Of a DNA stretch of 64,000 nucleotides, positions 4,828 to 30,016 are shown in pieces. Numbering within the stretch: position 1 is the stretch's first letter; the number at the start of each line of letters is the position of its first letter. The DNA is taken from the NCBI GenBank assembly GCA_002687175.1, contig NYZP01000019.1:14629-78628 (forward strand), read 5' to 3'. This DNA is from Parcubacteria group bacterium (GTDB lineage Bacteria; Patescibacteriota; Patescibacteriia; Buchananbacterales; UBA6539). Under the pieces are notes generated by a model, which was not told the origin of the DNA, did not search any database, and saw nothing but the letters and a program-made list of their open reading frames with translations. Made by a program: the position numbers and the translations under genes.

Positions 4828-6924
4828 ATGGAGGAAAAGATTACTAAAGTAAAATATTTATCTGTCACTTTAATATTAGGTTTAATAGTGACTTTTAATT
4901 TTTTAAGTTTGTACAATCAAACAATTGGCCTACTAGCGGGCCTGGCTTATATTATTTTTTACAGTTTTATTTTTGGCTCAATTTTTATTAGTCAAAAACC
5001 TTGGCAGTCACTATTTGGTCTGCTTTTTTTTATTTCCCTAGTATCAATCGTTAGTGCTTTGGCTATTTATTTCTACAAGTTTAATGACATGTTCTTCATA
5101 ATTTTAATTTGGATAATTCCCCTGTTTCTCATTAATCCTTATTATAAAATTAGACCCCAAGAAAAATTTTCCTTGCCCAAACTTTTAAAAAAATATTTAG
5201 AAAAAGTTAGGCATCGTAAAGAACATAAATTACATTTTCTGCTGGTTATTCTGTATCTGGTTCTAACTAGTCTGAATTTTATTTTATTATTCTATGGTCA
5301 AACCATAGAATCAATTCAAGCTCCCTGGCAAGTGGTTCCCAGTGTATTTTTATTAATATATTTCTTGGCCACTCTTTGTTTATTAATCTATGTGTTTAAT
5401 GCTAAAAGGACAAAATTGCCTTTAATCTTAATAAGCATCCACACTTTTTTAAGTAGCTCCATTGCTTTAATAGTATATAAAATTGGCTACGGTTTCGACC
5501 CCTTCATTCATCAAGCCACCGAAAAGATTATCAACCAAACTGGTTCAATTGACCCAACACCTCTTTATTACTTAGGACAATATGGGTTGGTAGTTTTTTT
5601 ACATAAATTAACTTTAATTGATTTAGTAATACTTGATCGGTTATTAGTACCAGTATTATTTTCTCTATTATTACCATCAATTACTTTTTATGTTTTTAGT
5701 AAATGGATTCCCAAAAATTATGCTTTGATTTTATCCTTAGTTACTTTGATTATCCCCTATTCAAGTTTCATCATGACTGCCCCCCAAAATTTGGCAAATC
5801 TTTTTTTTATCATTACTATTTTGCTTTCCCTGCTTTATTTTAGAAACCAACTACCGGTGTCAATTCTTTACTTATTAACTATTACCACTTTGGTGATTCA
5901 CCCCCTAGCCGGTATTCCATTACTGATCACGGTTTTGCTAATCAATCTATTTAAAATGATGTATTCCAGTTATATAAAATCAATGAGTCTTTATTTCTTT
6001 GCCTCGTTGGTCTTTGTTTTATTTTTACCATTAGCATTTATGATTAATGGTTCTAATCTAAAGTTATCTATGCCAATATTTTCCAAAGTTGATTTCCCTT
6101 TACCTGTTTGGCTGGACCGCTTTGATCTACCACTTAATTTAGTTTATTTAATCAACTTTAATCAGGCGATCTTCGCTGGGTTGATTATACTAATTGGCAT
6201 AGTTTATATTGCCAAAAATAATTTGTTAAAAAACAATGCCCCCTATCTAATGGCCGCCTTTATAATTTTTTCCAATTTTATTATTACCAAGTATTTTTTA
6301 ACCTTTCCGGACTTAAGAATTTTTGATCAAAACTCTTTTGTCAGTCGTTTATCTGTCCTGACTTTTTACACTTTGCTCCCCTTCTTTTTAATTGGGCTTT
6401 ACGTAACTATTAAAAATGTCTGGACAAAAGATATTTATTTAAAATCATTTTTGGTACTTACTCTGGCTGGCGGGCTGACAATCTCGCTCTATCTTTCCTA
6501 TCCTAGATTTAATCAATTTGAACCAGCTAAATTTTTCAGTTTATCACAACACGATATTAACGCGGTTAATTTAATTGAAAAAACTGCTTCACCTCAACAC
6601 ATTGTCTTGGCTAACCAAATGGTTGGTGTTGCTGCGATAAAAGAATTTGGTTTTAAACAATATTATGACAATCAATTCTTTTACTCAATGCCCATGGGTT
6701 CTCCTCGAACCTTTTATGATCATTTCTTAGCTATGACCCATGAAGGTGCAAAAAAACAGACTATGGAGTCTGTGATGGACGAAGCCGGAGTTGATGAAGC
6801 CTATTTTGTGTTAAACAGCTACTGGCGAGATTTTGATAAAATTGCAACACAGGCACGACAATCAGCGGAAACGGTTTATGATATTGATGAAGGTAAAATC
6901 TTGATTTTTAAGTATATTAGGTGA
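4828..6924 (+). CDS. large polytopic membrane protein (YfhO/GT-C-like), unknown function
   Basis: 698 aa, highly hydrophobic, with many predicted TM helices and a ~150 aa soluble C-terminal domain. An extended -10 element (TGtgATAGAAT) lies upstream at ~4795. Confidence 0.4.
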   Translation: MEEKITKVKYLSVTLILGLIVTFNFLSLYNQTIGLLAGLAYIIFYSFIFGSIFISQKPWQSLFGLLFFISLVSIVSALAIYFYKFNDMFFIILIWIIPLFLINPYYKIRPQEKFSLPKLLKKYLEKVRHRKEHKLHFLLVILYLVLTSLNFILLFYGQTIESIQAPWQVVPSVFLLIYFLATLCLLIYVFNAKRTKLPLILISIHTFLSSSIALIVYKIGYGFDPFIHQATEKIINQTGSIDPTPLYYLGQYGLVVFLHKLTLIDLVILDRLLVPVLFSLLLPSITFYVFSKWIPKNYALILSLVTLIIPYSSFIMTAPQNLANLFFIITILLSLLYFRNQLPVSILYLLTITTLVIHPLAGIPLLITVLLINLFKMMYSSYIKSMSLYFFASLVFVLFLPLAFMINGSNLKLSMPIFSKVDFPLPVWLDRFDLPLNLVYLINFNQAIFAGLIILIGIVYIAKNNLLKNNAPYLMAAFIIFSNFIITKYFLTFPDLRIFDQNSFVSRLSVLTFYTLLPFFLIGLYVTIKNVWTKDIYLKSFLVLTLAGGLTISLYLSYPRFNQFEPAKFFSLSQHDINAVNLIEKTASPQHIVLANQMVGVAAIKEFGFKQYYDNQFFYSMPMGSPRTFYDHFLAMTHEGAKKQTMESVMDEAGVDEAYFVLNSYWRDFDKIATQARQSAETVYDIDEGKILIFKYIR

Positions 6925-6935
6925 CTCTGTTTTCC

Positions 6936-7054
6936 TTCTGTCATTCTGAGACCTCCTCTATTGTCATCCTGAGCGAAGCGAAGGATCTCTGGTGTTAAGA
7001 CGTAAGTAATATCACCAGAGATTCTTCGGCCTTCGGCCTCAGAATGACAGGAGG
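6936..7054. repeat. MITE-like palindromic intergenic element A
   Basis: Terminal inverted repeat CTGTCATTCTGAG (6938-6950) / CTCAGAATGACAG (7038-7050). There is an internal hairpin GAAGGATCTCTGGTG...CACCAGAGATTCTTC and a GGCCTTCGGCC mini-hairpin. A second half-site TTGTCATCCTGAGCGAAGCGAAGG lies at 6961-6984. The element fills the whole convergent gap between two genes. Confidence 0.6.
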
Positions 7055-7064
7055 AAAAAATGTT

Positions 7065-8237
7065 TTACACAAGCTTAGTGAGTTGTTTAATATAATTCGC
7101 CACCGAGAAGTTTCTGATGGACACAAAACAATTCTTGCGAAGCTTTTCAATATTTTCCGGATGATTTAAAAAGTGTTCCAATACTTCAATTAAAATTTTC
7201 TCATTACCGGGCACGAAAGTAAAACCATTATAATCGTCTTTTACAATCTCCGACACTCCCCCAATGTCCGCGGCAATCACTGGAACATTAGCCACCAAAC
7301 TTTCATCAATTACTTTAGGTGAATTTTCATAAACCAATGACGGCACTATCGTTAAATCCGTCTGACGATAATGCTCGGCCAACTTCGGCTGTTCAACATG
7401 GCCAATTAAATTAAACCGTTGATCATCTTTAATCGCTTGCTTAACATCTTTTTCCGCGCCACCAGAACCAATAATCTTCAACTGCCAATTAGTGGGGGTT
7501 ATTTTTTTAAGCGCTTCAATTAAAAATAAGATGCCTTTAAACTTTTCCAGCTGGCCAATAAACAGTAAATTAATTTTCCGGTTACCAATATCTTCTTGAT
7601 CTTCGCGTTTCTCTACTTGTTTAAATACCACTGGATTGGGCATGATTAGCTTTTTAGATTCATAAAAAAATCCTCGGGCTTGGTAATAACCTTGAAGCCA
7701 ACGCGATGGTGAAATTACAATATCGGGATTGCCAAACAACCGTTTAATGGTTTTCTCATAAACTTTGTCGATAATAAAGAAAGGTTTTTCCACTCCAAAG
7801 ATAATTAAACCAGATGGTCTTGATAACTGAACATCGTGAACCGTGTGAATGTGTTGAATTTTTAAACTCTTAATAGCCCTGGGTACCAAATAACCAATCC
7901 CTTTTAGATTATGGCTCATCACCACTTTTGGCTTTTCTTCCCGTAAAATCTTTTTAACTGAAAAATAAGAACTTAAATTAAAAACATCCAACGGATGCCA
8001 AAAAATACGTAACCAAATCGGCCGCTTGTTAATGTCTAAAAAAGAAAAAATATTAAGCGGCGTAATCCGGTGAATGGTTAGGTTGCCTTCCTTGCTAACT
8101 CCCTTTTTTCGGCCAACAGTAATTAACACCACTTCGTGCCCCAACTTCAAAAGCTCGTGGACAATAATTTCCACCACCACTTCCGCTCCCCCGCGAGTGT
8201 AAGGTTTATATAAGCTATGTATTAGACAGATTTTCAT
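7065..8237 (-). CDS. GT4 family glycosyltransferase (GT-B fold)
   Basis: Likely start at the internal MKICLIHSLYKPYTRGGAEVVV. A C-terminal EX7E-type block (SLVYENSPKVIDESLVANVPVIAADIGGVSEIV) is typical of GT4 retaining transferases. Confidence 0.8.
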   Translation of the reverse strand: MKICLIHSLYKPYTRGGAEVVVEIIVHELLKLGHEVVLITVGRKKGVSKEGNLTIHRITPLNIFSFLDINKRPIWLRIFWHPLDVFNLSSYFSVKKILREEKPKVVMSHNLKGIGYLVPRAIKSLKIQHIHTVHDVQLSRPSGLIIFGVEKPFFIIDKVYEKTIKRLFGNPDIVISPSRWLQGYYQARGFFYESKKLIMPNPVVFKQVEKREDQEDIGNRKINLLFIGQLEKFKGILFLIEALKKITPTNWQLKIIGSGGAEKDVKQAIKDDQRFNLIGHVEQPKLAEHYRQTDLTIVPSLVYENSPKVIDESLVANVPVIAADIGGVSEIVKDDYNGFTFVPGNEKILIEVLEHFLNHPENIEKLRKNCFVSIRNFSVANYIKQLTKLV

Positions 8238-8333
8238 AAATAGTTTATAAATAATATATACTTTAGCCAAAAAAGTCAATAAATTTTATATATCTACTAG
8301 TAATCAACTTAATTAATAATTAAACATAAAATT

Positions 8334-9454: not shown

Positions 9455-9745
9455 AAAAAGGGTAAGTACTCTAAGAGCACTTACCCACATGGAATCCTTG
9501 AGGCCGTTACAGGCAGTGACGGGGTCGGATTAGCTAAGTTGCGGTATTTCACACCATTGCTGGTTACCCTCCCGAGGAGGACAATTGCGACTAGCTGTTT
9601 CCCAGAGAAAACAGTTCACAGTCTCCCGCATATTCTAGGAAGTAGCCATCCCCTCAATAGGACCAATGCTAGGGATTCGAACCCTAGTACGACCAACCAC
9701 TGTTTCCATGATGCTAAGATATTATTCTAAATTTTAAAAAAAGTC
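9455..9745 (-). ncRNA. candidate small structured RNA of unknown family
   Basis: A ~250 nt GC-rich (~50%) non-coding stretch in a 30% GC genome. On the minus strand a sigma70-like promoter (TTGACT, 17 bp spacer, TAATAT) sits at ~9743-9715. There is a canonical T-loop-like GGTTCGAATCC with a 5-6 bp stem at 9677-9695. Bases near the predicted 5' end (CAUGGA) can pair with UCCAUG just before the 3' hairpin. The 3' end is a hairpin (9460-9486) followed by a U-run on the minus strand. No full tRNA cloverleaf and no tmRNA/RNase P/SRP consensus could be aligned by eye. Confidence 0.3.
9460..9486 (-). terminator. rho-independent terminator hairpin (U-tract on minus strand; may also attenuate plus-strand read-through)
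   Basis: GGGTAAGTACTC-TAA-GAGCACTTACCC forms a 12-bp stem with one mismatch. The A-tract on the plus strand is a U-tract on the minus strand. Confidence 0.55.
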
Positions 9746-9787
9746 AAGGATAAAAAAAGGCCCAACTACGTTAATTCGTAGTCGGGC
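9746..9787 (-). terminator. rho-independent terminator of the GC-rich 3-gene cassette
   Basis: The plus strand reads AAAAAAAGGCCCAACTACG-TTAATT-CGTAGTCGGGC. On the minus strand this is a GC hairpin followed by UUUUUUU, immediately 3' of the stop at 9805. Confidence 0.65.
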
Positions 9788-9804
9788 TTAATGGTTGTAC
9801 GGAT

Positions 9805-10035
9805 TTACAACTCTATTCCTTGTTGCTCCGCCCATTCTCCTAGGGTCAGGTCTCCAGTGTGTTCTTCGTAGAAACCAAACTCTGGATATTCCGTTATACT
9901 GGGATTCTGCTTGGCCTTCTTAAGGGCTTCAACTTTTTTATCGCATTTAGCGACAACCAGTTCTTGCCACTCTTCTTCCGTGTCGATAACTTCACCGACC
10001 TGTCCGGAAAAACCAAATTTTGGCCACTTTGCCAT
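9805..10035 (-). CDS. hypothetical small acidic protein (foreign GC-rich cassette, gene 3 of 3)
   Basis: 76 aa ORF at ~50% GC. A strong RBS AAAGGAG lies 7 nt upstream of the ATG. It is followed by the terminator above. Confidence 0.55.
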   Translation of the reverse strand: MAKWPKFGFSGQVGEVIDTEEEWQELVVAKCDKKVEALKKAKQNPSITEYPEFGFYEEHTGDLTLGEWAEQQGIEL

Positions 10036-10053
10036 TGCACGCTCCTTTCTGGT

Positions 10054-10338
10054 CTAGTCAAAAACCTCGTAGACCTTCTTGGCTTCCAGAAGAATTCCAT
10101 GCCTGCGCGCTATCAAAAGTACGAACTCCTCGGTCAAGTTGCGACCGCCGGTGGTAGTGCGATTATGCTCCTCTACACCGTTGAAGAATTCATCTTGCTC
10201 GGGATCAAAGCATGGCTCTTCAGGATCTCCTTTGGTTAGATCCCATACCTGGACAAAAGCACCAACGGCCGGATGGTGATCGACACCAAACGCCATGGCA
10301 AACTGTGGGCCACTGACAACTTCGCGACTCATTGGCAA
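10054..10338 (-). CDS. hypothetical protein (foreign GC-rich cassette, gene 2 of 3)
   Basis: 94 aa ORF with RBS GAAGGAGA 8 nt upstream of the ATG. It is 12 bp downstream of gene 1 and 18 bp upstream of gene 3. Confidence 0.55.
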   Translation of the reverse strand: MPMSREVVSGPQFAMAFGVDHHPAVGAFVQVWDLTKGDPEEPCFDPEQDEFFNGVEEHNRTTTGGRNLTEEFVLLIARRHGILLEAKKVYEVFD

Positions 10339-10350
10339 TCTCCTTCTCGG

Positions 10351-10899
10351 TTAAACCAGAATTAAATTCCGGTTAAGTTTGATTCTGCTGCCTTGAGGAA
10401 TCTTTTTAAATTCCTTTTTATACGTTGCATACTGTATTGCGGTCTGGTACCAAGTTGACCAACGAAGTTCATAATCACGGCCAGCTGGGTCGTAAATTCT
10501 TTTCAACTCTTCCTTGAGTTTACGCCCGTACCAGCAATTCCTGGCAAAGGCTAAGCCGAGGAGCCAGTAGGCTGGTTCCAAGGTTAATGGCCCGGCAGGA
10601 ACTGCGGGTATGGAAACTTCACCAGTGACCCAGGTTCTGTTTATCGGCGCGCCGATAAAGTGCCTGGCTATAACCACGTTTCTCCCGGCAGCTTTTATTC
10701 CTTCGGCAAAGCTTAAGATGCAGCGATGCCGTGGCATCCATCCACCGAGTGCTTCGCCTAACTCTTTGGCTGGGTCAAAAAACCAAGCCTCACCGCGGGC
10801 GTTAGTCACCAGTACTGAACGCTCATGTTGAGCAAATCCACTTCTAACAATAATGATCTGGTTCTTCAGTCTCTGTTTCATTCCAATATCCTCCGTCAA
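10351..10899 (-). CDS. hypothetical protein, 182 aa (foreign GC-rich cassette, gene 1 of 3)
   Basis: RBS GGAGGA 8 nt upstream of the ATG. GC is ~50% and the codon usage is unlike the flanking genes. No motif I can assign confidently. Confidence 0.55.
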   Translation of the reverse strand: MTEDIGMKQRLKNQIIIVRSGFAQHERSVLVTNARGEAWFFDPAKELGEALGGWMPRHRCILSFAEGIKAAGRNVVIARHFIGAPINRTWVTGEVSIPAVPAGPLTLEPAYWLLGLAFARNCWYGRKLKEELKRIYDPAGRDYELRWSTWYQTAIQYATYKKEFKKIPQGSRIKLNRNLILV

Positions 10900-11112
10900 G
10901 CTCCCACTTGAAAGAAGGAGCTGGTGTTGTTGTGCAAACAGGTTGTAAGGTACTTCACTAAATACGTCAGAATTCGCAATACTAATTTACCTGGTTTAGA
11001 TTCTATATTGTTAGCTATATTTTTAGCTAGATAGAATACTAAAAGTTAATATTTTAGGTAAAAAAATAAGCGAATATCAAACAATTCACTATACACTATT
11101 TTACCAATTTTG

Positions 11113-12976: not shown

Positions 12977-13249
12977 ATGGCAATTACTGCTGATGACACC
13001 CGTGTTGGGAATGGCAAAGTGACTGATGAAGAGTCAACCGTAGTCTGCCCTTGCTGCGCGGGAATCATGACGGAAGACCCTGACACCCCGAACGGTATGG
13101 GTGTCAAGGGCTACTATGATTGTCCGGTGTGTGGCTTTAGTCACGAGAGTTACCTGCATACGCAGGGAGAAGACGCCGAGATAATACGCCGGGGAGTGGT
13201 CTATATGGACAAACTCGCGGCGGAAGCAGAAAAGGGACGAGGATCTTAG
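12977..13249 (+). CDS. small zinc-ribbon protein (CPCC...CPVC), GC-rich, probably horizontally acquired
   Basis: 90 aa at ~55% GC. Four Cys are arranged CxCC-x21-CPVC. An AAGGAG RBS lies 8 nt upstream of the ATG. It has its own terminator downstream. Confidence 0.55.
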   Translation: MAITADDTRVGNGKVTDEESTVVCPCCAGIMTEDPDTPNGMGVKGYYDCPVCGFSHESYLHTQGEDAEIIRRGVVYMDKLAAEAEKGRGS

Positions 13250-13301
13250 CGAATGCTCGATCTTATCGAGAACTCCGAAGAAAGACCCTAAGCTGCCTCT
13301 C

Positions 13302-13340
13302 CCCCCCCCGGACCCCACCTGATCACGAAAAGTGTGACGG
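13302..13340 (+). terminator. rho-independent terminator
   Basis: GACCCCACC-TGATCACGAAAAGTGTGAC-GGTGGGGTTC followed by TTTTTTT. A poly-C run precedes it. Confidence 0.6.
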
Positions 13341-13380
13341 TGGGGTTCTTTTTTTACCTAAAATTATTAAATTAAAATCA

Positions 13381-14046: not shown

Positions 14047-15162
14047 ATGAGCGCTAAAAATCAAATTTCTAATCTCCTGGCAAAAGCTGATGTTAAAATT
14101 AACGGAAAACGTTCGTGGGATATTCAAGTAAAAAACGAGGCTTTGTACAGTCGATTAATGTCGCAAGGTTCAATGGGCCTCGGTGAATCGTACATGGATG
14201 GCTGGTGGGAATCTGCTGAGCTGGATGAATTTTTTTCTAAAATTTTATCTGCTGATTTAAGTTCACAGATTAAACCAAGTCCGGCATTAATCTTTTCTTA
14301 CCTTAGGAGTAAAATGTTCAACCTACAGAAAAGCTCTCGAGCTTTCCAGATTGGCGAAAGACACTACGATGTCGGCAATGATTTGTACCAAGTAATGCTG
14401 GATAAACGAATGGTTTACACTTGTGCTTATTGGGACAAAGGGGCAAAAAATCTAGATGCTGCCCAGGAAGATAAACTTGATCTAGTTTGTAAAAAAATGA
14501 AATTTAAAAAGGGCCAGCGGGTATTAGATATTGGCTGTGGCTGGGGTAGTTTTGCTAAATATGCCGCTGAAAAATGTGGCGTCAAGGTTGTTGGGGTAAC
14601 AGTGTCTAAAAATCAAGTAAAATTGGGGAACAAATTATGCAAAGGCTTACCAGTTGAATTAAGACTGCAAGATTATCGCGAACTAAATGAAAAATTTGAC
14701 CACATTGTATCCTTGGGAATGTTTGAACATGTTGGTAAAAAAAATTATAGAACATACATGGAGGTGGCTTCAAGAAACTTAAAAGATAATGGACTTTTTT
14801 TACTACAAACTATTGGTAGTAATTTATCAACCAAATCACTCGATCCCTGGATTGAAAAATATATTTTTCCTAATTCAATTCTGCCATCAATCTCAGAAAT
14901 TGCCAAAGCCTCCGAGAATATATTCATCATGGAAGATTGGCACAATTTCTCTTATGATTATTATCTAACTCTAAAAAGCTGGTTTAATAATTTTGATTCA
15001 CACTGGGATGAACTTAAACAAAATTATGATCAACGGTTTTACAATATGTGGAAGTATTACTTAAAATCAACCGCCGGTGGTTTTAAGTCCCGTTCTATCC
15101 AGCTGTGGCAAGTAGTACTGTCTAAGCACGGTGTTACTGGTGGTTACAAGTCGGTGAGGTAA
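14047..15162 (+). CDS. cfa: cyclopropane-fatty-acyl-phospholipid synthase family SAM methyltransferase
   Basis: VLDIGCGWGSFAKYAAEKCGVKVVGVTVSKNQ matches motif I and the post-I block of the CFA synthase/mycolic acid cyclopropane synthase family. Length 371 aa. Confidence 0.75.
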   Translation: MSAKNQISNLLAKADVKINGKRSWDIQVKNEALYSRLMSQGSMGLGESYMDGWWESAELDEFFSKILSADLSSQIKPSPALIFSYLRSKMFNLQKSSRAFQIGERHYDVGNDLYQVMLDKRMVYTCAYWDKGAKNLDAAQEDKLDLVCKKMKFKKGQRVLDIGCGWGSFAKYAAEKCGVKVVGVTVSKNQVKLGNKLCKGLPVELRLQDYRELNEKFDHIVSLGMFEHVGKKNYRTYMEVASRNLKDNGLFLLQTIGSNLSTKSLDPWIEKYIFPNSILPSISEIAKASENIFIMEDWHNFSYDYYLTLKSWFNNFDSHWDELKQNYDQRFYNMWKYYLKSTAGGFKSRSIQLWQVVLSKHGVTGGYKSVR

Positions 15163-15184: not shown

Positions 15185-15283
15185 TTTGTCATTGCGAACC
15201 CCGCGTATGCGGGGTGAAGCAATCTCTGTCTATAGAGATTGCCACGTCGTCCCGCTAAAGCGGGACTCCTCGCAATGACAAAA
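15185..15283. repeat. MITE-like palindromic intergenic element B (related to element A)
   Basis: Terminal inverted repeat TTTGTCATTGCGAA (15185-15198) / CTCGCAATGACAAA (15268-15283). Three internal perfect hairpins: CCCCGC-GTAT-GCGGGG, GCAATCTCT-GTCTAT-AGAGATTGC and GTCCCGC-TAAA-GCGGGAC. Confidence 0.6.
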
Positions 15284-15293
15284 AGAAAAGAAT

Positions 15294-15605
15294 ATGCCTT
15301 TTATTACTGTTTACACAACCAATAAAAACTTGGCGGAAGCTAAAAAAATTGCTAACTCTTTACTTAAACAAAAGCTGATTGCTTGTGCGAATTTTTTTCC
15401 AATCAAGAATATGTATTGGTGGAAAGGTAAAATAGAAAATGATAATGAAGTTGTCAGTATTTTAAAAACTCGTAAAGAAAATTGGAATAAAGTAAAAAAC
15501 CAAATAAAAAAACTTCATTCTTATGAAGTCCCGTGTATTGAAAAATTTAATGTTAGCGCTAACAAAGATTACGAAAACTGGATTATCAAATCTACCAAAA
15601 AATAA
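15294..15605 (+). CDS. cutA: divalent-cation tolerance protein CutA (CutA1 family)
   Basis: 103 aa. MPFITVYTT at the N-terminus, ...ACANFFPI...SYEVPCIEKF, and the conserved YEVPE-like block. Length and layout are typical of CutA1. Confidence 0.7.
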   Translation: MPFITVYTTNKNLAEAKKIANSLLKQKLIACANFFPIKNMYWWKGKIENDNEVVSILKTRKENWNKVKNQIKKLHSYEVPCIEKFNVSANKDYENWIIKSTKK

Positions 15606-28561: not shown

Positions 28562-30016
28562 ATGAAGATACTACTCATTAACCCCCCTACTTTCAATATG
28601 ATTACTTCGGCTTTGCCCGGTGTCATTGAAGAGGAACGAGGAGTCAATCCCCCCTTAGGCATCCTGTATATTGCAGGTTACTTAAGAAAATTTACTGACC
28701 ATGAAGTAGAGATGTTTGATACTCAATTGGAAAAGTCTAGCTATGAGGAAATTGAAGAACGTATCAAGAAAAGTAATCCTGATGCCGTTGGTATTACGGC
28801 AATGACATTTACCATTATTGATGTGATAAAAATTTGTAAAATTATTAAAAACTTTAACCCTAACATTAAAGTTATTTTAGGCGGACCGCACATCAATATT
28901 TATCCAAATGAAACAATGGAAATTCCCGAGGTAGACTTTCTGGTAATGGGTGAAGGAGAAATGGTGATAAAAGATTTGGTCAACAATATTAATGATCAAG
29001 AAAAACTACATCAAATTACTGGATTAGTTTTTAGAGATGATGGACAAATTGTTAAAACCGGTGTCAGAGAACTACTTCAAGATTTAGATATCTTGCCTTT
29101 TCCGGCCAGAGAAATAACGCAATACAAAAAATACTCTTCTGTTTTGGCAACGCATAAAATTGTAACAACAATGTTTACTTCTAGGGGTTGCCCTTACAAA
29201 TGTTCATTTTGTGATCGACCGCATCTAGGCAAAAGATTTAGAGCTCGAACAGCAGCAAATGTCGTAGACGAAATGGAATTATGCCAAAACATGGGTATTG
29301 GTGAAATATTAATTTACGATGATACCTTCACTATTGATCGACGTCGTGTTGTTGCTGTATGTGAAGAGTACTTAAAAAGAGGTCTAAAGATAAATTGGGA
29401 CATCAGGGCCAGGGTTAATACTGTTGACACCGAACTACTAAAATTAATGAAAAAATCTGGCTGCACCAGAATTCATTACGGTGTTGAAGCAGGAACCGAG
29501 AAGATACTTAAGGTATTGAAGAAAGGAATTAACCGTAAAATGGTTAAAAAGGCCTTTAAATTAACTAATAAAGAAGGTATAGAAAGCTTAGCCTACTTTA
29601 TGATTGGTTCTCCAACCGAGACAGTAGATGATATTAAAGAAACAATAAAATTTGCTAAAAAAATAAAACCAAATTTTGTACACGCTACAGTTTTAATGCC
29701 TTTTCCGGCCACTGATATTTACTACCAAGGTCTAGAAAGTAAGGTAATAAAATCAGACCATTGGCGAGAATTTGCCAAAAATCCTACAGCCGATTTTAAA
29801 CCACATCTTTGGACTGAAAACTTTGATGAGAAAGAACTGTTTCAATTGCTGCGGTTATTTTATCATAAATTTTATCTGAGACCATCGTTCATCGTTAAAA
29901 AATTAGCTGAATTAAAGTCTTGGGATGAATTTGTTAGAAAATTTAAAGCTGGGATGAGCATCATAAAAATGAAAAAAAATCCGCACAAGTTAATCTCCGC
30001 TAGAGTTGCCGAATAA
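28562..30016 (+). CDS. B12-binding domain radical SAM enzyme (class B radical SAM methyltransferase-like), paralog 1
   Basis: N-terminal cobalamin-binding Rossmann region (ILLINPP...VGITAMTF), then the radical SAM cluster motif CPYKCSFC (CxxxCxxC). 484 aa. Confidence 0.75.
   Translation: MKILLINPPTFNMITSALPGVIEEERGVNPPLGILYIAGYLRKFTDHEVEMFDTQLEKSSYEEIEERIKKSNPDAVGITAMTFTIIDVIKICKIIKNFNPNIKVILGGPHINIYPNETMEIPEVDFLVMGEGEMVIKDLVNNINDQEKLHQITGLVFRDDGQIVKTGVRELLQDLDILPFPAREITQYKKYSSVLATHKIVTTMFTSRGCPYKCSFCDRPHLGKRFRARTAANVVDEMELCQNMGIGEILIYDDTFTIDRRRVVAVCEEYLKRGLKINWDIRARVNTVDTELLKLMKKSGCTRIHYGVEAGTEKILKVLKKGINRKMVKKAFKLTNKEGIESLAYFMIGSPTETVDDIKETIKFAKKIKPNFVHATVLMPFPATDIYYQGLESKVIKSDHWREFAKNPTADFKPHLWTENFDEKELFQLLRLFYHKFYLRPSFIVKKLAELKSWDEFVRKFKAGMSIIKMKKNPHKLISARVAE

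Follow-up and report, generated by a model that had tools for sequence, protein, structure and literature searches.

Paired intergenic hairpin repeats in a Parcubacteria contig and their probable link to Ssn-type GIY-YIG nucleases

Two palindromes that fill intergenic gaps

We analyzed a stretch of 64,000 nucleotides (nt) from a Parcubacteria group bacterium (GenBank assembly GCA_002687175.1, contig NYZP01000019.1, positions 14,629 to 78,628 of the forward strand), here referred to as the window, which has a G+C content of 34%. It contains two short palindromic elements, A and B, which we consider likely to be paired hairpin repeats linked to the Ssn family of GIY-YIG nucleases. Element A occupies the whole gap between two convergent open reading frames (ORFs), 4828-6924(+) and 7065-8279(-), which encode a protein of 698 amino acids (aa) without a Pfam match and a GT4 glycosyltransferase, respectively. 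Element B fills the gap between the cyclopropane-fatty-acid synthase gene (CMAS; 14047-15162, plus strand) and the gene for CutA (15294-15605, plus strand). Element A begins 6 to 15 nt past a stop codon and element B 23 nt past one. A preliminary description, made from the nucleotide sequence, had presented both as intergenic and bounded by terminal inverted repeats (TIRs) that enclose internal hairpins; a perfect 13-bp core was indeed found in the outer repeats of each element, and the inverted-repeat calls and the sequence yielded the internal hairpins as claimed. The head sequence common to A and B, GTCATYSYGA, occurs five times in the window, compared to 0.41 expected occurrences, and none of 100 shuffled sequences contained five, which argues against the chance similarity that the same description had named as a possible objection. 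Folded as single-stranded DNA (ssDNA), element A reaches -36.7 kcal/mol (z = -9.2 with respect to shuffled sequences) and element B -36.6 kcal/mol (z = -11.3). A and B are real and strong intergenic palindromes.

Rfam returned only noise and no matching family, both for the window at the gathering score and for the two elements at E values up to 10, and no tRNA or tmRNA genes were found in the window. With less stringent criteria, the hairpin scan lost its specificity (17 matches in the window versus 14.4 expected). One further candidate, TGTCATTGAAGAGGAACGAGGAGTCAATCCC at 28622-28648, resembles a solo unit; it lies within ORF 28562-30016, where it encodes the conserved motif GVIEEERGVNP near the N terminus, and was rejected as a chance look-alike.

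Both elements are built from hairpin units that follow one plan, namely, a 5' (T/C)GTC tag, a 5-bp foot opening with A-T and T-A pairs, tandem G.A mismatches, a variable inner hairpin, and a C after the foot. Element A, delimited by the inverted-repeat call and the ssDNA fold, spans 6930..7058 in its full extension and consists of an orphan head followed by a heads-out pair of units. Its outer inverted repeat (6930-6953 / 7035-7058) is 24 nt long and 92% complementary, with the perfect 13-bp core CTGTCATTCTGAG / CTCAGAATGACAG. Its internal features are the half-site TGTCATCCTGAGCGAAGCGAAGG that starts at 6962, a stem formed by 6979-6997 and 7010-7028, and the hairpin GGCCTTCGGCC. The orphan head, TGTCATTCTGAG (6939..6950, plus strand), comprises the tag, the 5' half of the foot, and GAG, with no matching AGAAT, and an 11-nt pyrimidine-rich spacer (6951-6961) leads from it to unit A1 (6962..6989, plus strand). 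This unit reads TGTC-ATCCT-GA-GCGAAGC-GA-AGGAT-CTC, with the foot ATCCT/AGGAT and the inner mini-hairpin GC-GAA-GC, and is defined by its sequence, the fold, and the foot covariation of the family. The half-site that had been regarded as an extra feature of element A is thus present at 6962; it is, however, the true left unit, and the outer TGTCATTCTGAG is the orphan head. The spacer or loop between the two tails (6990..7017) lets them continue into a stem, TCTGGTG / CACCAGA, and is followed by unit A2 (7018..7049, minus strand; sequence and fold), which reads TGTC-ATTCT-GA-GGCCGAAGGCC-GA-AGAAT-CTC.

Element B (15185..15282) is a heads-out pair that folds as ssDNA into a four-way junction. Its outer repeat is a perfect 13-bp match, TTTGTCATTGCGA / TCGCAATGACAAA (15185-15197 / 15270-15282), and it contains three internal hairpins, CCCCGC..GCGGGG, GCAATCTCT..AGAGATTGC, and GTCCCGC..GCGGGAC. 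As read from the sequence, unit B1 (15187..15226, plus strand) is TGTC-ATTGC-GA-[ACCCCGC GTAT GCGGGGT]-GAA-GCAAT-CTC, and unit B2 (15235..15280, minus strand) is TGTC-ATTGC-GA-GGA-[GTCCCGC TTTA GCGGGAC]-GAC-GTG-GCAAT-CTC, where square brackets enclose inner hairpins; between them lies the central loop TGTCTATA (15227..15234; sequence and fold). The terminal core that A and B had been proposed to share holds for element A and for the right arm of B, whereas the left end of B reads TGTCATTGCGAA rather than ending in GAG. The different feet and inner hairpins of A and B indicate that neither is a recent copy of the other.

Orphan heads are not confined to element A. The layout of an orphan head, a spacer of 9 to 14 nt, and a full unit was seen in 31 cases among 820 full units at other loci, where the head has the form TGTCATNNNGAG and the spacer is often pyrimidine rich (for example, L244 3375, L218 12678(-), L177 12080, and L287 9909(-), where L numbers designate the loci that were retrieved). 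At some loci, orphan heads directly 5' of full units form tandem arrays with a period of 21 to 23 nt. Orphan heads may be a by-product of the cutting or copying of units.

One hairpin arm as the repeating unit

The canonical arm of the family is TGTC-ATTGC-GA-[inner hairpin]-GAA-GCAAT-CTC. The four units of the window (A1, A2, B1, and B2) measure 28 to 46 nt, and TGTC lies directly 5' of the foot in all of them. The base following the foot is C in each of the four, as it is in 778 of 800 family units. Several observations define the unit. (i) The two halves of the foot pair within one arm: ATTGC is matched by GCAAT in 88% of the cases, ATGCT by AGCAT in 71%, and ATTCT by AGAAT in 67%, a value that rises to 90% in an independent set of A-type elements. 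ATTCC, ATTGT, and ATCCT feet likewise pair with their own complement within the arm, and off-diagonal combinations amount to 0 to 8%, with the exception of two low-count classes. Since the symmetry of terminal repeats needs no such pairing within an arm, this covariation identifies one arm as the repeating unit. Arms are also found solo, in tandem, and, rarely, heads-in. (ii) The inner hairpin varies freely in sequence and is conserved in pairing. Among 205 distinct junction sequences, 80% close with at least two Watson-Crick pairs, compared to 10% after shuffling, and in the same-length subset compensatory changes affect 5 of 6 pairs of the inner helix (covariation score of 0.256 versus 0.064 for shuffled sequences; none of 500 shuffles equaled it). 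The helix comprises 1 to 7 bp and is closed mostly by 3-nt GNA loops. (iii) Read in unit orientation, the mismatches are G.A or A.G in 102 cases and C.T or T.C in 4, which indicates that the fold is selected on one strand of a single-stranded nucleic acid. A heads-out pair thus offers one good unit per strand. (iv) The 3' tail of the family is CTC in 120 units, CCC in 47, CGC in 46, and CCA in 22; the units of the window end in CTC. Heads-out pairs hold 243 of 313 units, a count that is biased by the pair-based design of the search.

K-turn and loop-E readings of the unit, considered from the sequence, were dropped; the bulge measures 1 nt and is not on the strand that a K-turn requires. Among the B-type pairs at loci L001-L120, the combination of a long left and a short right arm on the plus strand of the contig outnumbers the reverse (41 versus 17). 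This skew shows no link with gene direction; contig orientation should be random, and the skew may be an artifact of retrieval.

The family is large. Exact B-type pairs (TGTCATTGCGA N50-80 TCGCAATGACA) were found at at least 120 loci in a collection with one genome per species, compared to about 1 to 2 chance matches estimated by hand from the size of the collection. Named records place them in at least 14 phyla, including Bacteroidota, Cyanobacteriota, Chloroflexota, Patescibacteria, Planctomycetota, Bacillota, several proteobacterial classes, Nitrospirota, Campylobacterota, Verrucomicrobiota, Omnitrophota, Gemmatimonadota, and others. Exact A-type pairs (TGTCATTCTGAG..CTCAGAATGACA) were retrieved from at least 120 metagenomic loci. 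The earlier suggestion that A and B belong to one superfamily that recurs in assemblies of uncultivated bacteria therefore holds, and the recurrence is massive. B-type pairs are carried by 40 viral contigs; the family is almost absent from cultured phages and PLSDB plasmids, where annotation was unhelpful. Nine of the IMG/VR contigs (L254, L255, L258, L264, L266, L267, L271, L277, and L278) are related and have in common an ORF of about 460 aa and several genes beside B-type units. At locus L093, three identical pairs (at 1565, 5571(-), and 7318) lie within an inverted duplication of several kilobases, and their flanks are mutually reverse complementary. Literature searches with the DNA strings and with the mistranslated peptide strings gave no relevant match.

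Gain and loss of pairs and the neighboring nuclease gene

Pairs lie mostly after genes: 62 were found between tandem genes, 28 between convergent genes, and 14 between divergent genes, without orientation bias relative to gene direction. Across 126 copies, no excess of direct repeats of 2 to 6 bp was found at any offset, which argues against target-site duplication, and no motif is present in the flanks, conservation ending sharply at TGTCA..TGACA. The CMAS-cutA junction revealed occupied and empty sites in syntenic relatives, whose CMAS proteins are 74% identical to that of the window and 83% identical to each other. In L125, the CMAS stop codon overlaps the cutA start codon (TAATG) and no element is present, and in the more distant L130 the two genes are 3 nt apart; both are empty sites. 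L126 carries at this junction a family member of 214 nt (6078-6291) with an AT-rich loop of about 60 nt, which matches element B exactly in the tag, foot, and tail blocks and differs from it in the inner hairpins and the loop. Pairs are gained or lost at orthologous sites without target-site duplication. The initial view of the elements as REP-like, nonautonomous, and intergenic (REP, repetitive extragenic palindrome) also holds. The L126 member and the window have flank strings in common (ACCAT.. and ..AAGAATATG), which hints at one insertion rather than two independent ones. No clean empty site was found for element A; the GT4 ortholog in L126 has another neighbor. Inner hairpins are shared by same-genome copies in 5 of 8 pairs, compared to 2% between genomes, which points to amplification inside genomes.

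The region around element B differs in other respects from that of its relatives. In L125, L126, and L130, CMAS is preceded by a Pterin_4a gene, whereas the window has a 90-aa ORF and AhpC at this position. Two islands located between A and B (9484-10900 and 12977-13350) have a G+C content of 55 to 60%, versus 34% for the genome, and their ORFs have no Pfam match and at most one weak PHROG match. The ORFs at 9.5 to 10.9 kb are missing from L126, the only relative whose locus extends that far. These islands are probably acquired DNA.

We then clustered the ORFs located within 400 nt of unit heads at 280 loci. The resulting clusters contained housekeeping proteins (ABC, TPR, SDR, and glycosyltransferases), genes of related viral contigs, and one small protein that occurs across distant phyla. 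This protein, a stand-alone GIY-YIG nuclease (PF01541) of about 96 aa, is the only recurrent nonhousekeeping neighbor across distant phyla. In the 1.98 Mb of element-centered loci, all 8 homologs of this nuclease lie 2 to 110 nt from a unit, a distance at which 20% of all ORFs are found (P of about 3e-6); they are accompanied by TGTCATTGCGAG or TGTCATTCTGAG units, usually on both sides. The preliminary description had suggested TnpB, an IS200-like protein, or another transposase as the partner; no RAYT-like ORF was found in any locus, and the gene enclosed by such ends encodes the GIY-YIG nuclease, a member of the Ssn family.

Loci chosen by the protein provide a complementary view. A pattern demanding GA after the foot matched 4 of 33 viral loci, and a general unit finder was then used for this set; it detected many foot types directly upstream and downstream of the gene, at a density of 2.10 units per kb up to a distance of 300 nt, compared to 0.13 per kb farther away. 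Foot type tracks protein clade, in that the ATTGCG/ATTCTG clade is distinct from the ATTCCC, ATCCCG, and ATCCCA clades. Within the ATTGCG/ATTCTG clade, TGTCATTGCGAG units adjoin the gene in all five protein-first loci (Berkelbacteria, Daviesbacteria, Calothrix, Cloacimonetes, and Thiohalophilus); the flanking pairs are degenerate in the Cloacimonetes locus, and the downstream units of the Thiohalophilus locus are not inverted. Proteins of this clade are 62 to 74% identical over a range of hosts that extends from Microgenomates, Berkelbacteria, and Daviesbacteria to Calothrix, Cloacimonetes, and Thiohalophilus. Heads-out units with ATTGCG and ATTCTG feet border this gene in many phyla, Patescibacteria among them. 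At two Patescibacteria loci, L326 and L328, it occupies exactly the loop of such a pair, a position taken in A and B by a loop of 6 to 30 nt. A and B resemble a gene-less form of this module.

The single-domain GIY-YIG nucleases of the Ssn family (cd10448) were described by Chenal et al. (Nat Commun 2025; PMC11893778). According to that study, Ssn enzymes bind NTS-like hairpin repeats, termed SRM, only as ssDNA and cut a few nucleotides upstream; for SsnA, the C after the palindrome is most critical for binding, three upstream bases govern cleavage, and no RNA binding was observed. An ssn gene has its own motif on either side, "like an IS" (insertion sequence), and the Neisseria Ssn system restricts transformation (PMC11893778). 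The conservation of the tag and of the C after the foot in our family agrees with the mutagenesis of that study. Taken together, these data make it likely that A and B are heads-out pairs of Ssn-related, CGTC(TGTC)-tagged REP hairpins and are linked to Ssn. By analogy with SsnA and NTS of Neisseria meningitidis (PMC11893778), the cognate Ssn would bind each unit only in ssDNA, a state that would arise during replication, transformation, conjugation, or an ssDNA stage of phages, and would cleave the strand a few nucleotides 5' of the tag, so that a heads-out pair would present one correctly oriented site per strand. Pairs of 85 to 130 bp could be internally deleted, gene-less derivatives of a unit-ssn-unit module and might be copied within genomes by that nuclease together with host repair or replication, a copying mechanism that we propose only tentatively. 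Pairs located after genes may in addition act as hairpins at the 3' ends of transcripts.

A number of points weigh against this interpretation. (i) The window contains no ssn-like ORF (best E value, 1.6); either the enzyme is encoded elsewhere in the genome, or it is absent and A and B are orphan sites. (ii) The association in the element-first loci carries an ascertainment bias, and the protein-first samples that counter it are small (5 loci and 33 viral loci). (iii) The published SRM sequence, HGTCWYN(0-2)YYVSBRHN(0-5)WNVSBRGN(0-2)RNCYNB, has no match on either strand of the window. It misses all four units of the window and the canonical short unit and matches a classical NTS-like control; it is a search tool and not a mechanistic criterion. 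(iv) Cleavage of the motif by Ssn proteins of the ATTGCG/ATTCTG clade is assumed by analogy. (v) The occupied sites of the window and L126 and the empty site of L125 correspond to two gains or to one gain and one loss, which are equally parsimonious. (vi) A GIY-YIG nuclease alone is not known to transfer strands, which leaves the copying step hypothetical.

The unit-ssn-unit module may itself be a horizontally moving element driven by the 96-aa nuclease, with A and B as its miniature inverted-repeat transposable elements (MITEs). We regard this as possible and rather doubtful; it is allowed by the occurrence of the same 12-nt and 11-nt blocks together with a 62 to 74% identical nuclease from Patescibacteria to cyanobacteria and gammaproteobacteria, as well as by the orthologous empty sites in the absence of target duplication. 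A classical MITE origin, as initially proposed, would make A and B deletion derivatives of an insertion sequence with a DDE transposase, moved by cut-and-paste with the 13-bp TIRs as transposase sites. The perfect TIRs, the small size, the intergenic position, the empty and occupied orthologous sites, and the existence of a longer, gene-containing form that shares these ends are all in its favor; however, no target-site duplication was detected, the supposed TIR corresponds to the head and the 5' foot half of one hairpin unit, the foot covaries within its arm, units also occur solo and in tandem, and the enclosed gene encodes a GIY-YIG nuclease, without any recurrent transposase nearby. This model is largely refuted, and we assign it very little probability. 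Hardly more credible is a strict REPIN model, that is, REP doublets mobilized by RAYT, an HUH Y1 tyrosine transposase of the IS200/IS605 superfamily. Inverted hairpin doublets, a strand-specific ssDNA fold, the lack of duplication, and the position after genes would all be expected of REPINs, but the tag is (T/C)GTC instead of GT[AG]G, Di Nocera et al. found no tyrosine transposase flanked by CGTC repeats (PMC3733652), and phmmer searches with Escherichia coli RayT, a single-sequence query of limited sensitivity, gave no match at E values up to 10 in 126 loci and the window or near the units of 280 loci.

An element acting at the RNA level, in which a transcribed hairpin shields or terminates the mRNA upstream of it or serves as a protein-binding site and spread as DNA is secondary, is improbable as the principal explanation and compatible with a link to Ssn. 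The predominance of positions after genes, the very stable folds, the location of A and B close behind stop codons, and the stabilization of transcripts by REPs (PMC3733652) speak for it. Against it stand the lack of orientation bias with respect to genes and of an Rfam family, the presence of GNA triloops and tandem G.A mismatches, which are typical of stable DNA mini-hairpins, in place of GNRA or UNCG loops, and the absence of RNA binding by SsnA (PMC11893778). Nor was an intrinsic terminator called at element A, which has no T-tract; its 5' flank is rich in T and its 3' flank in A, the reverse of a terminator. A folded recombination site of the attC or Xer type that marks gene cassettes would account for palindromes that are imperfect, conserved at the ends, variable in the center, and recognized in folded single-stranded form, and A and B do bracket 8 kb that include GC-rich, foreign-looking DNA. 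The units have no RYYYAAC/GTTRRRY cores, do not occur once per cassette, and lack any recurrent transposase, integrase, or recombinase in their vicinity at the loci surveyed, and this reading is the least credible of all.

Relation to known repeat classes

The biology of these repeats had been called poorly described, a statement that is outdated: the repeat class was cataloged in 2013 (PMC3733652), and a cognate nuclease was characterized in 2025 (PMC11893778). Di Nocera et al. (BMC Genomics 2013; PMC3733652) defined the CGTC-tagged REPs, with the families CGTC-1 to CGTC-4, including Neisseria dRS3 and Rickettsia RPE-4 and RPE-6. These have an unpaired 5' CGTC tag (often TGTC, with CCTC allowed), an uninterrupted stem of 8 to 9 bp that opens with A-T and T-A, tolerates at most one mismatch, and is closed by a loop of 4 to 5 nt, and a 3-nt tail starting with C (consensus, CCA); head-out dimers predominate, and the gaps in which the repeats occur separate tandem or convergent genes. 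They were reported from five phyla with "no dedicated transposase" (PMC3733652). Both papers cover the same repeats in Neisseria (dRS3), Sphingomonas/Rhizorhabdus wittichii, and Wolbachia, and the 2013 paper also those of Rickettsia (RPE). The text of PMC11893778 mentions neither Patescibacteria, Bacteroidetes, and cyanobacteria nor the authors of the 2013 study, and ATTGCGAG strings are absent from the supplements of PMC3733652 and PMC6006769. The association of nuclease and hairpin was found independently here and had already been published for Ssn and SRM (PMC11893778), and units of the ATTGCGAG/ATTCTGAG type are a subtype of a known class and not a new class. The subtype of A and B lies outside the published SRM and CGTC-REP definitions, as judged without Supplementary Data 5 of PMC11893778, which may include it.

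These data have several implications. (i) Two separate literatures, on CGTC-tagged REPs and on Ssn and SRM, are joined, and the 2013 statement of "no dedicated transposase" is answered by Ssn, at least as far as association is concerned. (ii) Since the subtype is outside the published SRM pattern, Ssn targets are undercounted in current surveys. For annotation, such sequences should be masked as Ssn-type/CGTC-type REP pairs; they are otherwise called hypothetical proteins, MITEs, or terminators. (iii) One pair of nuclease and motif is nearly unchanged over many phyla, among them Patescibacteria with their small genomes, and the subtype provides Ssn-based ssDNA tools with a new specificity that is defined by sequence. 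(iv) The empty and occupied sites, together with gene-containing and gene-less forms, make the mobility of the Ssn module directly testable. If the module is mobile, the long-orphaned CGTC-REP superfamily would gain a mobilizing enzyme, and the combination of a GIY-YIG ssDNA nuclease and host repair would represent a transposition-like mechanism.

Among the known systems, SRM is very close. SRM are hairpin-forming repeats of 20 to 50 nt to which a conserved HGTC tag on the upstream side gives a direction. The Neisseria NTS (CGTCATTCCCGCGMAVGCGGGAATCYRG) is likewise an oriented hairpin, with an upstream GTC tag, a foot opening with AT, and a C after the palindrome, and the SRM/Ssn system has in common with our family hundreds of intergenic copies, the IS-like layout of motif, ssn, and motif, and motif types specific to clades. 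The family analyzed here differs from SRM and NTS in its 5-bp foot, the tandem G.A, the nested hairpin of variable length, and units of 25 to 46 nt, and from the SRM/Ssn systems described so far in a nuclease clade and motif blocks that are near-identical over at least 14 phyla, including Patescibacteria. With the CGTC-tagged REPs, the units of the window share the TGTC tag, the A-T/T-A start of the foot (ATCCT/AGGAT, ATTCT/AGAAT, and ATTGC/GCAAT), the tail beginning with C, and the head-out dimers; intergenic placement between tandem or convergent genes and the lack of a flanking transposase are likewise common to both. They differ in the two-tier stem with G.A mismatches, in CTC instead of the consensus CCA as the commonest tail, and in a much wider spread over phyla. 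A heterodimer of an A-type unit and a classical CGTC-1 unit is found in L028 (position 6732).

More distant parallels exist with two further systems. The REPINs and REP-RAYT "REPtrons" (Bertels and Rainey 2011; Quentin et al. 2018, PMC6006769) are also inverted doublets of ssDNA hairpins without target duplication and are alike in a cognate gene flanked by repeats and in amplification within genomes; their tag is GT[AG]G and their enzyme an HUH Y1 protein, whereas the pairs described here have a (T/C)GTC tag and a GIY-YIG nuclease, and no RAYT was found. Bacterial MITEs such as Correia/NEMIS and Nezha resemble A and B in their short length, terminal inverted repeats, and presence/absence polymorphism and in their relation, as gene-less forms, to a longer element that shares their ends. 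In contrast to MITEs, however, the pairs have no target-site duplication and no DDE transposase, and their ends are halves of autonomous hairpin units.

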